A stretch of DNA of 64,000 bases from contig NC_086097.1 of NCBI RefSeq assembly GCF_963921235.1, positions 4,154,001-4,218,000 of the forward strand. The letters run 5' to 3'. This document shows positions 1 through 7,040 of the stretch, one piece after another. Origin of the DNA: Mobula hypostoma. Lineage: Eukaryota. The position numbers and the translations under genes are program-made. How positions within the stretch are numbered: the first letter of the stretch is position 1; every line of letters begins with the position of its first letter. Under the pieces are notes generated by a model that ran no database searches, was not told the DNA's origin, and saw only the letters and a program-made list of their open reading frames with translations.

Positions 1-1418
1 CTATCTCAGTATCATCTGCATACTTACTAATCCAATTTACCACCCCATCATCCAGATCATTAATGTATATGACAAACAACATTGGACCCGGTACAGATCC
101 CTGAGGTACACCACTAGTCCCCGGCCTCCAATCTGACAAACAGTTATTCACCACTACTCTCTGGCGTCTCCCATCCAGCCACTGCTGAATCCATTTTACT
201 ACTTCAATATTAATACCAAACGATTGATCCTCCCTAACTAACCTTCCATGTGGAACCTTGTCAAAGGCCTTACTGAAGTCCATATAGACAACATCTATCG
301 CTTTACCCTTGTCAACTTTCCTAGTAACCTCTTCAAAAAATTCAATAACATTTGTCAAACATGACCTTCCACGCACAAATCCATGTTGACTGTTCCTAAT
401 CAGGCCCTGTCTATCCAGATGATTATGTATACCATCTCTAAGAATACTTTCCATCAATTTACCCACCACTGACGTCAAACTCACAGGCCGATAATTGCTA
501 CGTTTACTCTTAGAACTCTTTTTAAACAATGGAACCACATGAGCAATACGCCAATTCTCTGGCACCATCCCCGTATCTGATGACATTTGAAATATTTCTG
601 TCAGAGCCCCTGCTATTTCCACACCAACTTCCCTGAAGGTCCTAGGGAATATCCTGTCAGGACCCGGAGACTTATCCACTTTTATATTCCTTAAGAGCGC
701 CAGTACTTCCTCTTCTTTAATCATCATAGATTCCATAACTTCCCTACCTGTTTCCCTTACCTTACATAATTCAATATCCTTCTCCTTAGTGAATACTGAA
801 GAAAATAAATTGTTCAGAATCTGCCCCATCTCTTTTGGCTCCACACATAGCTGTCCACTCTGATTCTCTAAGGGACCAATTTTATCCCTCACTATTCTTT
901 TGCTATTAATATAACGGTAGAAACCCTTGGGATTTATTTTCACCTTACTTGCCAAAACAACCTCATATCTTCTTTTAGCTTTTCTAATTTCTTTCTTAAG
1001 ATTCTTTTTACATTCTTTATATTCCTCGGACACCTCATTTACCCCAAACTGCCTATATTTATTGTAGATATCTCTCTTTTTCCGAACCAAGTTTCCAATA
1101 TCCCTTGAAAACCATGGCTCTCTCAAACTTTTAACCTTTCCTTTCAACCTAACAGGAACATAATGATTCTGTACTCTCAAAATTTCACCTTTAAATGACC
1201 TCCATTTCTCTATTACAGCCTTCCCATAAAACAAATTGTCCCAATCCACTCCTTCTAAATCCTTTCACAGCTCCTTAAAGTTAGCCTTTCTCCAATCAAA
1301 AATCTCAACCCTCAGTCCAGACCTATCCTTTTCCATAATTATATTGAAACTAATGGTATGTGATCACTGGACCTAAAGTGCTCCCCAACACATACCTCCG
1401 TCACCTGACCTATCTCAT
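1..1418 (-). mobile_element. CR1 LINE 'A', ORF2 downstream part (EN end, tether, RT), degraded; continues beyond window start
   Basis: Minus strand reads CR1 RT motifs ([32 protein letters not shown]). It joins 5390 onward once the inserted element B is removed. Confidence 0.9.
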
Positions 1419-1514
1419 AGAAACATAGAAACATAGAAAATAGGTGCAGGAGTAGGCCATTCGGCCCTTCGAGCCTGCACCGCCATTTATTATGATCATG
1501 GCTGATCATCCAAC

Positions 1515-4500
1515 TCAGAACCCCGCCCCAGCCTTCCCTCCATACCCCCTGACCCCTGTAGCCACAAGGGCCATATCTAACTCCCTCTTAAACATAGCCA
1601 ATGAACTGGCCTCAACAGTTTGCTGTGGCAGAGAATTCCACAGATTCACCACTCTCTGTGTGAAGAAGTTTTTCCTAATCTCGGTCCTAAAAGGCTTCCC
1701 CTCTATCCTCAAACTGTGACCCCTCGTTCTGGACTTCCCCAACATCGGGAACAATCTTCCTGCATCTAGCCTGTCCAATCCCTTTAGGATCTTATACGTT
1801 TCAATCAGATCCCCCCTCAATCTTCTAAATTCCAACGAGTACAAGCCCAGTTCATCCAGTCTTTCTTCATATGAAAGTCCTGCCATCCCAGGAATCAATC
1901 TAGTGAACCTTCTTTGTACTCCCTCTATGGCAAAGATGTCTTTCCTCAGATTAGGGGACCAAAACTGCACACAATACTCCAGGTGTGGTCTCACCAAGGC
2001 CTTGTACAACTGCAGTAGTACCTCCCTGCTCCTGTACTCGAATCCTCTCGCTATAAATGCCAGCATACCATTCGCCTTTTTCACCGCCTACTGTACCTGC
2101 ATGCCCACTTTCAATGACTGGTGTATAATGACACCCAGGTCTCGTTGCACCTCCCCTTTTCCTAATCGGCCACCATTCAGATAATAATCTGTTTTCCTAT
2201 TTTTGCCACCAAAGTGGATAACTTCACATTTATCCACATTAAATTGCATCTGCCATGAGTTTGCCCACTCACCCAACCTATCCAAGTCACCCTGCATCCT
2301 CTTAGCATCCTCCTCACTGCTAACACTGCCGCCAAGCTTCGTGTCATCCGCAAACTTGGAGATGCTTCATTTAATTCCCTCATCCAAGTCATTAATATAT
2401 ATTGTAAACAACTGGGGTCCCAGCACTGAGCCTTGTGGTACCCCACTAGTCACCGCCTGCCATTCTGCAAAGGTCCCGTTTATTCCCACTCTTTGCTTCC
2501 TGTCTGCTAACCAATTCTCCACCCACACCAATACCTTACCCCCAATACTGTGTGCTTTAAGTTTGCACACTAATCTCCTGTGTGGGACCTTGTCAAAAGC
2601 CTTTTGAAAATCCAAATATACCACATCCACTGGTTCTCCCCTATCCACTCTACTAGTTACATCCTCAAAAAATTCTATGAGATTCGTCAGACATGATTTT
2701 CCTTTCACAAAGCCATGCTGACTTTGTCCGATCATTTCACCGCTTTCCAAATGTGCTGTTATCACATCCTTGATAACTGACTCCAGCAGTTTCCCCACCA
2801 CCGACATTAGGCTAACCGGTCTATAATTCCCCGGTTTCTCTCTCCCTCCTTTTTTAAAAATTGGGGTTACATTAGCCACCCTCCAATCCTCAGGAACTAG
2901 TCCAGAATCTAACGAGTTTTGAAAAATTATCACTAATGCATCCACTATTTCTTGGGCTACTTCCTTAAGCACTCTAGGATGCAGACCATCTGGCCCTGGG
3001 GATTTATCTGCCTTCAATCCCTTCAATTTACCTAACACCACTTCCCTACTAACATGTATTTCACTCAGTTCCTCCATCTCACTGGACCCTCTGTCCCTTA
3101 CTATTTCTGGAAGATTATTTATGTCCTCCTTAGTGAAGACAGAACCAAAGTAATTATTCAATTGGTCTGCCATGTCCTTGCTCCCCATAATCAATTCACT
3201 TGTTTCTGTCTGCAGGGGACCTACATTTGTCTTTACCAGTCTTTTCCTTTTTACATATCTATAAAAGCTTTTACAGTCCGTTTTTATGTTCTCTGCCAGT
3301 TTTCTCTCATAATCTTTTTTCCCCTTCCTAATTAAGCCCTTTGTCCTCCTCTGCTGAACTCTGAATTCCTCCCAGTCCTCAGGTGAGCCACTTTCTCTGG
3401 CTAATTTGTATGCTACTTCTTTGGAATTGATACTATCCCTAATTTCTCTTGTCAGCCACGGGTGCACTACCTTCCTTGATTTATTCTTCTGCCAAACTGG
3501 GATGAACAATTGTTGTAGTTCATCCATGCAACCTTTAAATGCTTGCCATTGCATATCCACCGTCAATCCTTTAAGTGTCATTTGCCAGTCTATCTTAGCT
3601 AATTCACGTCTCATACCTTCAAAGTTCCCCTTCTTTAAGTTCAGAACCTTTGTTTCTGAATTAACTATGTCACTCTCCATATTAATGAAGAATTCCACCA
3701 TATTATGGTCACTCTTACCCAAGGGGCCTCTCACGACAAGATCGCTAATTAACCCTTCCTCATTGCTCAAAACCCAGTCCAGAATAGCCTGCTCTCTAGT
3801 TGGTTCCTCGACATGTTGGTTCAAAAAACCATCCCGCATACATTCCAAGAAATCCTCTTCCTCAGCACCTTTACCAATTTGGTTCACCCAGTCTACATGT
3901 AGATTGAAGTCACCCATTATAACTGCTGTTCCTTTATTGCACACATTTCTAATTTCCTGTTTAATACCATCTCCGACCTCACTACTACTGTTAGGTGGCC
4001 TGTACACAACTCCCACCAGCGTCTTCTGCCCCTTAGTGTTACGCAGCTCTACCCATATCAATTCCACATCTTCCTGGCTTATGTCCTTCCTTTCTATTGC
4101 ATTAATCTCTTCTTTAACCAGCAACGCCACCCCACCTCCCCTTCCTTCATGTCTATCCCTCCTGAATATTGAATATCCCTGAACGTTGAGCTCCCATCCC
4201 TGGTCACCCTGGAGCCATGTCTCTGTGATCCCAACTATATCATAATCATTAATAACAATCTGCACTTTCAATTCATCCACCTTATTACGAATGCTCCTTG
4301 CATTGACACATAAAGCCTTCAGGCGCTCTTTTACAACTCTCTTAGCCCTTGTACAATTATGTTGAAAAGTGGCCCTTTTTAATGCTTGCCCTGGATTTGT
4401 CGGCCTGCCACTTTTACTTTTCTCCTTTGTACTTTTTGCTTCTATGCTCACTTTACACCCCTCTGTCTCTCTGCACTGGTTCCCATCCCTCTGTTGTGAA

Positions 4501-4562
4501 CTAACCTCCTCACGCCTAGCCTCTTTAATTTGATTCCCACCCCCCAACCATTCTAGTTTAAA
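1515..4562 (-). pseudogene. CR1 ORF2 (APE endonuclease + reverse transcriptase) with two in-frame stops and no frameshift
   Basis: ORFs 2367-4547, 2088-2297 and 1515-2084 share one frame, broken by TGA at 2367-2369 and TAG at 2088-2090. Motifs NARS, ETW, GDFN, SDH, PGPDG, FADD. Confidence 0.92.
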
Positions 4563-5389
4563 GTCACCTCAGTAGCCCCCGCTAATCTCCCCGCCAGGAT
4601 ATTGGTCCCCCTAGGATTCAAGTGTAACCCGTCCTTTTTGTACAGGTCACGCCTGCGCCAAACGAGGTCCCAATGATCCAAAAACTTGAATCCCCGCCCC
4701 CTGCTCCAATCCCTCAGCCACGCATTTATCCTCCACCTCATCGCATTCCTACTCTCACTGTCGCGTGGCACAGGCAGTAATCCCGAGATTACTACCTTTG
4801 CGGTCCTTTTTCTCAACTCCCTTCCTAGCTCCCTATATTCTCCTTTCAGGACCTCATCCCTTTTCCTACCTATGTCATTGGTACCTATATGTACCACGAC
4901 CTCTGGCTCCTCACCCTCCCACTTCAGGATATCTTGGACACGATCAGAAATATCCCGGACCCTGGCACCAGGGAGGCAAACTACCATCCGGCTCTCTGGA
5001 CCGCGTCCACAGAATCGCCTATCTGACCCCCTTACTATCGAGCCCCCTATCACAACTGCCCTCCTCTTCCTTGCCCTACCCTTCTGAGCTACAGGGCCAG
5101 ACTCTGTGCCGGAGGCACGGCCACTGTCGCTTCCCCCGGGTAAGCTGTCCCCCCCAACAGTACTCAAACAGGAGTACCTGTTGTTAAGGGGCACAGCCAC
5201 CGGGGTACTCCCCATCACCTGACTTTTCCTCTTCCCCCTCCTAACCGTGACCCACTTGTCTGCCTCCCGTGGCCCCGGCGTGACCACCTGCCTTCCACTC
5301 CTCTCTATCACCTCCTCGCTCTCCCTGACCAGACGAAGGTCATCGAGCTGCAGCTCCAGTTCCGTAACACGGTCCCTTAGGAGCTGCAC
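4553..5389 (-). pseudogene. CR1 'B' ORF1 (coiled coil + SGNH/GDSL esterase-like domain), 5' truncated
   Basis: VIGGSIVR, CLPGA, HIGTND and DGLHLN motifs typical of CR1 ORF1 esterase. Confidence 0.88.
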
Positions 5390-7040
5390 CTCATTCCCTA
5401 ACAGGAGATCCAACACTGCCCCTTCTCTAGTTGGTACCTCTATGTGTTGCTGTAAAAAAACCATCCTGCACACATTTTACAAACTCCAAACCATCCAGCC
5501 CTTTCACAGTATGGGCTTCCCAGTCTATGTGTGGAAAATTAAAATCTTCCACAATCACAACCTTATGCTTACTACAAATATCTGCTATCTCCTTACAAAT
5601 TTGCTCCTCCAATTCTCACTCCCCATTTGCTGGTCTATAATACACCCCTATAAGTGTTACTACACCTTTCCCATTTCTCAATTCCACCCAAATAGCCTCC
5701 CTAGACGAGCCCTCTAATCTATCCTGCCAGAGCACCACTGTAATATTTTCTCTGACAATCAGTGCAACACCTCACCCTCTTGTCCCTCTGATTCTATCAC
5801 ACCTGAAGCAATGAAATCCAGGAATATTTAGTTGCCAATCACACCCCTCCTGTAACCATGTTTCACTAATAGCTACCACATCGTACTTCCAGGTATCAAT
5901 CCATGCTTTAAGCTCATCCACCTTTCTTATAATGCTCCTAGCATTAAAGTAAATGCATTTAAGAAATTTTCCACCTCTTACTCTCTGTTTACCACTAACG
6001 GTGCAAACAACTTTACTATTTTCTTTTTCTTCCTTCTCCCACACATCTGTTCCTACACTCTGGTTCCCCTCCCCCCCCCCCCCCACCGTATCTAGTTTAA
6101 ATCCACTGGAGCCTCTCTAGCAAACCGACCTGCAAGAATATTTGTCCCCCTCCAGTTCAGATGTAGACCGCCCTGCCGGAACAAGTCCCACCTTCCCTGG
6201 AAAACTGCCCAATTATCTATAAATCTGAAGCCCTCCCTCCTGCACCATGTCTTCAGCCATACGTTGATCTGCGCTATCTTACTATTTCTAAACCCACCTG
6301 CACGTGGCACTTGTAGGAATCCTGAGATTGCTATCCTCGAGGCCCTGTCCTTTAACTTGGCGCCTAACTCCCTAAACTCACCTTACAGGACCTCCTCACT
6401 CTTCCTACCCACGTCATTGGTCCCTACATGGACCACAACATCCGGCTGCTCACCTTCCCTCTTGAGAATACCAAGAACTCGATCCAAGATATCGCGGACC
6501 TTGGCTCCAGGGAGGCAACAGACCATCCGGGATTCTCAATCTCTTCCACAGAACCTCTTATCTGTCCCCCTAACTATCAAATCCCCTATCATTACTGCTG
6601 TCCTCTTTTCCCCCCTTCCCTTCTGAGCTGAGGGTCCCAGAGACACAACCACTGCAACTTGTCCCTGGTAGGTCATCCCCCTCAACAGTATCCAAAATGA
6701 TGTACTTATTGGTGGAACGGCCACAGGGGTGCTCTGCTCATTCTGTCTATTCCCCTTCCCTCTCCTGACCATCACCCAGCTACCTGTCTCCTGACCCTTA
6801 GGGGTGACTATCTCCCTGTAACTCCTGTTTATTTCTGCCTCTGCCTCCCGAATGATCCGAAGTTCATCCAGCTCCAGCTCCAGTTCCCTAACTTGGTTTG
6901 TCAGGAGCTGCAGCTGGATGCACCTTTTACAGGTGTAGTCATCAGGGACGATTGTGCTCACCCTGGCTTCCCACATCCTGCAAACGAAGCACTCAACTGC
7001 CCTAACTGCTGCCTCCATTACCTACTCCTAAGGTAATTAG
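5390..7040 (-). mobile_element. CR1 LINE 'A' 5' part: ORF1 (CxxC zinc finger, esterase) and ORF2 endonuclease, degraded
   Basis: ORFs 6536-7018 (CFVC...CKRC), 6092-6310 (GLHLN) and 5772-6086 (YFNARS, SETW). Confidence 0.9.

Follow-up and report, generated by a model that had tools for sequence, protein, structure and literature searches.

The stretch of DNA considered here is a window of 64,000 nucleotides (nt) from the genome of Mobula hypostoma (NCBI RefSeq assembly GCF_963921235.1, contig NC_086097.1, positions 4,154,001 to 4,218,000 of the forward strand); "the window" means this whole stretch, and positions are counted from its first letter. Its minus strand carries a long interspersed nuclear element (LINE) of the CR1 type, here called element B, in which the first open reading frame (ORF1) meets the second (ORF2) at a short sequence, U_UUA_AAC. 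An original prediction, made from the letters alone, had interpreted this junction as a programmed -1 ribosomal frameshift (-1 PRF) site joining ORF1 to an ORF2 without an AUG. The features of element B are listed below.

About 1417 to 5389, minus strand: element B, a CR1-type LINE (3' boundary approximate)
4556 to 5389, minus strand: ORF1 remnant, coiled coil and GDSL/SGNH esterase, 5'-truncated (311 amino acids in intact copies)
4570 to 4572, minus strand: TGA in the -1 (ORF2) frame, the 5' limit of the productive shift window
4556 to 4562, minus strand: slippery heptamer U_UUA_AAC, made up of the last base of a Thr codon and the Leu and Asn codons of ORF1
4553 to 4555, minus strand: ORF1 stop TAG, directly adjoining the heptamer
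4536 to 4549, minus strand: G-rich tract GGTTGGGGGGTGGG, with the core GGGGG-NN-GGG from 10 nt past the heptamer
1515 to 4562, minus strand: ORF2 frame counted from the heptamer, APE endonuclease and reverse transcriptase (RT), natural stop at 1517-1515
2369-2367 and 2090-2088, minus strand: premature stops in ORF2
1417 to 1514, minus strand: 3' untranslated region, terminating in (TTTCTATG)x3 (boundary approximate)

Element B and its ORF1/ORF2 junction

Both reading frames of element B match known domains in Pfam, ORF1 as Lipase_GDSL_2 (E 4e-16) and ORF2 as Exo_endo_phos (E 8e-12) followed by RVT_1 (E 3e-25). The closest named protein to ORF1 is an uncharacterised Mobula hypostoma protein of 311 amino acids (94% identical), and a full-length homologue, P0001, also 94% identical, matches PDB entry 4c1b (E 9e-28), its residues 145-302 aligning to chain residues 7-164. 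The ORF1 of the window is without its first 30-odd codons. This copy of element B is dead, being 5'-truncated and interrupted by two premature stops in ORF2. The CR1 label appears warranted by the esterase ORF1, by homologues among bird CR1-like proteins and by octamer repeats at the 3' end, which we take to be a CR1 trait; in element B these form a microsatellite-like tail of three TTTCTATG octamers (window 1417-1440, minus strand). Element B is itself nested in the endonuclease region of an older CR1, called E2 (window 1-1360 and 5390-6800, minus strand), whose ORF2 match breaks off near 5390 and picks up again at 1360.

At the end of ORF1, the minus strand reads ACT (4564-4562), TTA (4561-4559), AAC (4558-4556) and TAG (4555-4553). 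T4562 to C4556 thus form U_UUA_AAC in the X_XXY_YYZ phase, with UUA and AAC as 0-frame codons, just as the original prediction had placed it before the ORF1 stop. The -1 frame runs TTT AAA CTA GAA TGG TTG GGG GGT GGG and then continues as the endonuclease and RT ORF, so that the assignment of ORF2 to this frame is borne out by the Exo_endo_phos and RVT_1 matches. Because a TGA lies in the -1 frame at 4572-4570, a shift into ORF2 is possible only within 4569-4556, a stretch of 14 nt. The first AUG in the ORF2 frame had been estimated to lie about 200 codons in, past the endonuclease motifs; it is found at codon 215 (3917-3915), behind NARS (codon 86), ETW (codon 113) and YRPP (codon 186). The "TTG start" of ORF2 at 4547 is a convention of the ORF lister only, and the ORF1 stop has no UAAUG-type AUG, since the AUG in UAGAAUGG sits in the third frame. 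The G-rich tract announced shortly downstream is likewise present (GGTTGGGGGGTGGG, 4549-4536), and its core is conserved.

The heptamer itself is not rare, TTTAAAC occurring 9 times in the window against 14 expected. The longer string TTTAAACTAG is observed twice against 0.25 expected, both times at CR1 ORF1 ends (B and E2). The significance of the heptamer lies in its place, phase and conservation, not in its mere occurrence.

Copies of family B in the genome

A genome search (3.48 Gb in 200 contigs) with the 251-base junction as query gave 335 candidates, and all 40 of the junction matches that were scored are 99-100% identical. Thirty family-B loci were examined, the window's own copy among them. 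TTTAAAC is found in 29 of these and TTTAAAT in the remaining one; heptamer and TAG are both intact in 28/30. The -1 frame is open across all 537 codons examined in 21 copies, and seven carry an AUG-initiated ORF1 of 311 amino acids. Because near-identical copies share the two-frame arrangement, it belongs to a young family and not to one copy. Family B was probably active recently.

Eight CR1 subfamilies share the heptamer

Besides B and E2, a further six CR1 subfamilies were found by probing the genome with ORF1 proteins of other species and then reading short junction stretches. The pairwise ORF1 identity of the eight is 42-67%, and all of them have NNT TTA AAC at the end of ORF1 and ORF2 at -1. 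A stop codon (TAA or TAG) follows the heptamer in seven of the eight family representatives, the L079 copy having CAG. The junctions other than that of family B are as follows.

6092 to 6101, minus strand: E2 junction (second CR1, ORF1 56% identical to B), GAT TTA AAC TAG, ORF2 at -1
6066 to 6087, minus strand: G tract of E2, GG T G14 A G4, from 7 nt past the heptamer
REGLN: GGT TTA AAC TAA, TTTAAAC in 16/17 copies
GCTTAG: GCT TTA AAC TAG, TTTAAAC in 7/8 copies
P36: TGT TTA AAC TAA, TTTAAAC in 5/5 copies
P13: GAT TTA AAC TAA, TTTAAAC in 5/5 copies
P60 (old, decayed): GCT TTA AAC TAA, TTTAAAC in 16/30 copies (by reading), scattered and differing single changes in the rest
L079 type: GAT TTA AAC, TTTAAAC in 1/2 copies, the stop being mutated in that copy

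E2-like copies elsewhere in the genome keep the heptamer (2/2), and the scattered changes in P60 are as predicted for neutral decay. One unplaced copy (L107) has TCTAATC in place of the heptamer. A genome search with protein P0064 returned no closer subfamily, its best matches being family B at 46%. Another CR1 junction variant was noticed at L036:2452-2558 (minus strand), where TGT GGT TTA AAC TAG is followed by GCAGGGGGATGG; it lies about 1 kb from a P60-type junction at the same locus.

The nearest upstream stop in the -1 frame lies 3-15 nt before the TTT in six of the eight families, and the ORF2 frame then stays open up to the endonuclease domain. No AUG precedes the endonuclease motifs in B, E2 or GCTTAG. 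The claim of an AUG-less ORF2 thus holds for element B and at least two other families, and fails for P13, REGLN and one P60 copy. An in-frame AUG ahead of the endonuclease had been named in the original prediction as a sign against frameshifting, and this sign is present in part, in the families P13 and REGLN.

Synonymous sites at the end of ORF1

The last approximately 225 codons of ORF1 were aligned by codon, with one copy for each of the eight families. Of the 45 columns in which the amino acid is invariant, 42 have degenerate codons, and a single codon is used by all eight families in only five of these. The five are the terminal TTA and AAC, together with one column each for Gly, Cys and Ile. 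Among invariant Leu columns, one in ten has a single codon, namely the terminal one (17% of Leu codons are TTA), and among invariant Asn columns it is again the terminal one, out of three. The codon ahead of the heptamer (ACT/GAT/GGT/TGT/GAT/GCT/GAT/GCT) specifies five amino acids (T, D, G, C, A), and its third base is always T; a third base is kept in only 8 of the 110 columns that hold three or more amino acids. A rough joint chance of the frozen heptamer, (3/40)^2 x 7/109 or about 4e-4, is a guide and not a P-value, because the eight families share ancestry and are not independent trials.

In this alignment, seven consecutive bases are frozen amid saturated synonymous sites. The heptamer is thus conserved beyond codon needs across eight diverged subfamilies, with the preceding T fixed, as an alignment of junctions had been expected to reveal. 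Tolerance of synonymous changes had been named in the original prediction as a sign against frameshifting; no such change occurs at the family level in any of the 8/8 representatives. Elsewhere in the ORF1 alignment, column 45 also has T at the third position in all eight families, with six amino acids (S, P, I, D, T, V).

The junction in other species

Distant species (sharks, birds, turtles) are represented by protein termini only, and the nucleotide comparison covers near relatives of at least 80% likeness. In an elasmobranch-led set of homologues that extend over the C-terminus, drawn from rays, sharks, Callorhinchus, Xenopus and a hummingbird, 53 of 61 end in Leu-Asn. The residue before the Leu is one that has no NNU codon (K, E, Q, M or W) in 1/53 of these, compared with 30/53 one position further upstream. 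Bird and turtle homologues end in Leu-Asn in 91 of 120 cases, and here the preceding residue is A (82), S (5), C (2), D (1) or V (1), and K, E, Q, M or W in 0/91. In an alignment of 17 sequences, the terminal Asn is among 12 invariant columns and closes an otherwise variable tail.

In contigs of four organisms, no variant reaches 10% across 4530-4562, which takes in the heptamer, stop, spacer and G tract, and variants are present at 4526, 4529, 4563, 4566 and 4569. This gap is consistent with conservation of the junction and is weak evidence, as 4440-4489, at the low-depth end, is also free of variants.

A search of metagenome contigs with one alignment gave no relative, and searches of genome and viral contigs for distant relatives gave only bacterial GDSL lipases or nothing. 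With another alignment, the metagenome contigs yielded seven loci at 21-31% identity with other junction types, which were kept out of the CR1 test. Among metagenome contigs, L081 (stop at 1262) and L085 (stop at 1226) are esterase-ORF1 LINEs, 21-27% identical, in which ORF1 and the endonuclease ORF lie in one frame with a single TGA between them. This layout suggests that readthrough or reinitiation, rather than frameshifting, might be used in that lineage.

CR1 ORF1 also stands in public records under misleading names (proteins P0018, P0167, P0014, P0050 and P0054). Some are called SGNH/GDSL hydrolase of Pseudomonas aeruginosa and Klebsiella pneumoniae, which is likely to reflect vertebrate contamination of bacterial assemblies. 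Others are called "40S ribosomal protein S24 isoform X2" (Pristis pectinata) or "transmembrane protein 204" isoforms (Mobula birostris), likely to be transposon exons in gene models.

The G run downstream of the heptamer

The sole conserved feature downstream is G GGG G NN GGG, 10 nt past the heptamer. Its register is alike in seven of the eight families (NNG GGG GNN GGN, peptide x-G-x-G). In 7/7 the first Gly codon has G as its third base, and so does the codon ahead of it, whether that codon stands for Leu, Arg, Gln or Gly; these two fixed wobble positions speak for some constraint that would act on the G run at the RNA level. A different argument for such selection, that the G run falls in differing codon phases between families, was rejected, the register being identical.

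With the quadruplex option of ViennaRNA, a two-tier quadruplex is predicted from 6 nt past the heptamer in B, REGLN and P13, and a four-tier quadruplex in the E2 copy that bears G14. Behind the E2 heptamer stands G14 in the window copy (6071-6084), but G6 in L104/L105. Because this length is unstable, the quadruplex potential of E2-type elements differs between copies. In the constructs of PMC3919603, -1 frameshifting of up to 7% is obtained with a G-quadruplex 5-8 nt behind UUUAAAC; natural cases of such stimulation, in the words of that study, "remain to be investigated". The G run of CR1 is a candidate stimulator of unspecified mode, which might work by folding into a small G-quadruplex or by binding a protein.

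A proposed -1 frameshift and its alternatives

Taken as sequence, the junction has the defining features of a -1 PRF site except the classical 3' structure. We consider that the CR1 ORF1/ORF2 junction is probably a programmed -1 ribosomal frameshift site that yields an ORF1-ORF2 fusion, so that the frameshift interpretation of the original prediction is supported, the support being comparative and drawn from eight subfamilies. According to a recoding review (PMC5009743), mammalian ribosomes shift on U_UUA_AAC as readily as on almost any heptamer. Most ribosomes would read UUA and AAC, reach the abutting stop and release the ORF1 protein (ORF1p). A minority would slip when the P site holds UUA and the A site holds AAC, so that the two tRNAs re-pair with UUU and AAA, and would go on in the ORF2 frame with CUA GAA UGG. 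The product would be a fusion of ORF1p and the ORF2 protein (ORF2p), about 1,300 amino acids long in an intact copy, which is the strategy of retroviral Gag-Pol. A low ratio of ORF2p to ORF1p would be set by frameshifting, and the coiled coil of ORF1 would hold the endonuclease and RT to the ORF1p particle on their own RNA. The stop adjoining the heptamer may add to stimulation.

Several results weigh against this interpretation. The abutting stop suits a termination-coupled mechanism equally well. A hairpin or pseudoknot 5-9 nt downstream is usual in eukaryotic -1 frameshift signals, although not strictly required, and here neither was found in conserved form: RNAalifold gave 0 base pairs across the eight families, folding of the 100 nt behind the stop is no more stable than that of shuffled sequences (minimum free energy z +0.54), Rfam has no match at the junction, and the best duplex of the G tract with a long-range partner in the element reaches -20.8 kcal/mol, compared with a mean of -19.6 for shuffled queries. 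The G run also encodes the conserved G-x-G peptide and is compatible with selection on the protein, no quadruplex is predicted by ViennaRNA in the GCTTAG, P36, P60 and L079-type representatives, and the first invariant G, 10 nt from the heptamer, lies beyond the 6-8 nt optimum of the PMC3919603 constructs. In-frame AUGs occur upstream of the endonuclease at ORF2 codon 38 in REGLN and at codon 59 in one decayed P60 copy, and P13 has an AUG at ORF2 codon 3, as a UAAUG overlap of stop and start, in 5/5 copies (L093-L097). With the heptamer intact and adjoining this UAAUG, P13 could use the frameshift, a restart at UAAUG, or both. The protein-only view of distant species, the variant-free stretch at 4440-4489 and the shared ancestry of the eight families count on the same side.

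The main rival is termination-reinitiation, in which ribosomes would stop at the abutting codon and the small subunit would stay and restart ORF2 nearby at an AUG or near-cognate codon, so that ORF2p would be made as a separate protein; in that case the conserved bases would serve as a tethering or restart signal. The constant position of the ORF1 stop between families, with Leu-Asn ends in 53/61 and 91/120 homologues, would fit such a signal, as would the UAAUG of all five P13 copies, whose AUG is in the ORF2 frame, and near-cognate codons lie within four codons of the stop in other families (UUG in B and GCTTAG, AUU in REGLN, ACG/GUG in the E2 copy of the window). A precedent exists in SART1, which uses UAAUG and a downstream structure (as cited in the review PMC3894237). 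However, seven of the eight families are without an AUG at the junction, P36 and P60 also lack a good near-cognate codon there, and no conserved structure lies nearby. Moreover, reinitiation needs no X_XXY_YYZ, and leaves it unexplained that TTA, AAC and the preceding T are frozen while the stop varies between TAA and TAG. We regard this explanation as rather improbable. Independent translation of ORF2, by internal entry, leaky scanning, a non-AUG start or a downstream AUG, would require the heptamer to be kept for another reason, such as a protein-binding or packaging site or the C-terminal Leu-Asn of ORF1p. The AUGs upstream of the endonuclease in REGLN and one P60 copy make it possible for REGLN and perhaps for P60, the missing classical stimulator structure agrees with it, and mammalian L1 ORF2 is thought to use unconventional, AUG-independent initiation (PMC5009743). 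Yet a need for Leu-Asn in the protein fixes neither the codons nor the preceding wobble T, and in B, E2 and GCTTAG, where no AUG precedes the catalytic motifs, a downstream start would give a protein without endonuclease. The ORF2 frame opens 3-15 nt from the heptamer in 6/8 families and is open to the endonuclease, and an unrelated signal taking the form of an in-phase canonical heptamer at the sole workable spot would be an unlikely coincidence; independent translation is decidedly improbable.

An origin of the two frames by decay, through a one-base deletion in a dead copy of a once-continuous ORF or of some other junction, might be suspected from the truncation and two premature ORF2 stops of the window copy. 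It is scarcely credible, given that the frame arrangement is common to 28-29 of 30 near-identical copies, seven of them with an intact 311-residue ORF1, that it recurs in eight subfamilies and that annotated ORF1 proteins of many species end at the same residue. Transcriptional slippage was set aside, as the G run comes only after the ORF1 stop and the T3 and A3 runs would be too short.

A much wider form of the frameshift proposal can be offered only tentatively and is open to serious doubt: that every esterase-ORF1 CR1 LINE of jawed vertebrates, whether in sharks and rays or in turtles and birds, produces its endonuclease and RT only as a fusion, by -1 frameshifting at an invariant U_UUA_AAC-stop. 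The signal would then be several hundred million years old, and its stimulator, instead of a hairpin or pseudoknot, would be a short run of G that forms a minimal G-quadruplex or is bound by a protein. No natural recoding site stimulated in this way would have been described before, and CR1 would be the first LINE clade with a Gag-Pol-like strategy.

Significance and comparison with known systems

To our knowledge, the translation of LINE ORF2 from bicistronic RNA is a long-standing question that has been studied almost only in L1 and SART1. If the frameshift proposal is true, a LINE can use the retroviral Gag-Pol solution, which would provide a ready mechanism for cis-preference and ORF2p dosage and tell annotators how CR1 ORFs are to be joined. 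In most vertebrate species, the CR1 group dominates among the retrotransposons (PMC13343379). The conserved slippery site suggests how these abundant elements may make their copying enzyme, and makes the ORF2 question experimentally simple.

No proposal of CR1 frameshifting was found in the full-text literature, the coverage of which does not include the original CR1 descriptions of 1997-2003. An overlap of ORFs in the -1 frame seems to have been noticed in early work on Jockey-type LINEs, and an earlier mention is thus possible. In its available portion, the recoding review names only HeT-A, TART and L1 among elements without long terminal repeats (non-LTR elements; PMC5009743). The word "frameshift" is absent from the review of non-LTR protein biogenesis (PMC3894237), "frameshift" and "overlap" are absent from the ZfL2-1 paper (PMC3905857), and a 2026 survey of the vertebrate CR1 group (PMC13343379) mentions no frameshift, overlap, slippery, stop codon or translation.

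Among LINEs, the silkworm telomeric element SART1 resembles CR1 in that its ORF1 stop adjoins the entry to ORF2, and P13 shares its UAAUG (cited in PMC3894237); unlike in SART1, the AUG is absent in 7/8 CR1 families, and a slippery heptamer is conserved instead. Mammalian L1 (PMC5009743) is likewise a two-ORF LINE whose ORF2 is made rarely from bicistronic RNA, but it has an inter-ORF spacer and no conserved slippery site, whereas the CR1 ORFs overlap by a heptamer-sized window. The gag of Drosophila HeT-A is stated to need a frameshift (PMC5009743), and in this it is a non-LTR counterpart to the CR1 proposal, although the shift lies inside gag, not at an ORF1-ORF2 junction, and the element has no RT of its own. 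ZfL2-1 ORF1p (PDB 4c1b), the type member of the esterase-class LINE ORF1 proteins, has the same coiled coil and SGNH esterase as CR1 but belongs, unlike element B, to an L2-clade zebrafish element.

The G-quadruplex constructs of Yu, Teulade-Fichou and Olsthoorn (PMC3919603) resemble CR1 in that G tracts come only a few bases behind UUUAAAC. The string GG-NN-GG-G-GG-NN-GG of families B, REGLN and P13 starts 6 nt past the heptamer, inside their 6-8 nt optimum. The constructs have four G3 tracts, in contrast to the two-tier quadruplexes predicted for CR1, and only in about half of the families. The conserved CR1 G run is thus a candidate for the natural case that was left open in that study.

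The heptamer U_UUA_AAC is used at the 1a/1b junction of coronaviruses (infectious bronchitis virus among them) and at some retroviral gag-pro and pro-pol junctions. Compared with these viral sites, CR1 has a G run instead of a hairpin or pseudoknot, a 0-frame stop that abuts the heptamer and a non-LTR carrier. It shares with them the same heptamer in the same phase, a polymerase ORF at -1 (in element B and at least two other families without a start of its own ahead of the endonuclease), and the expectation of a structural-protein/polymerase fusion made at a low ratio.

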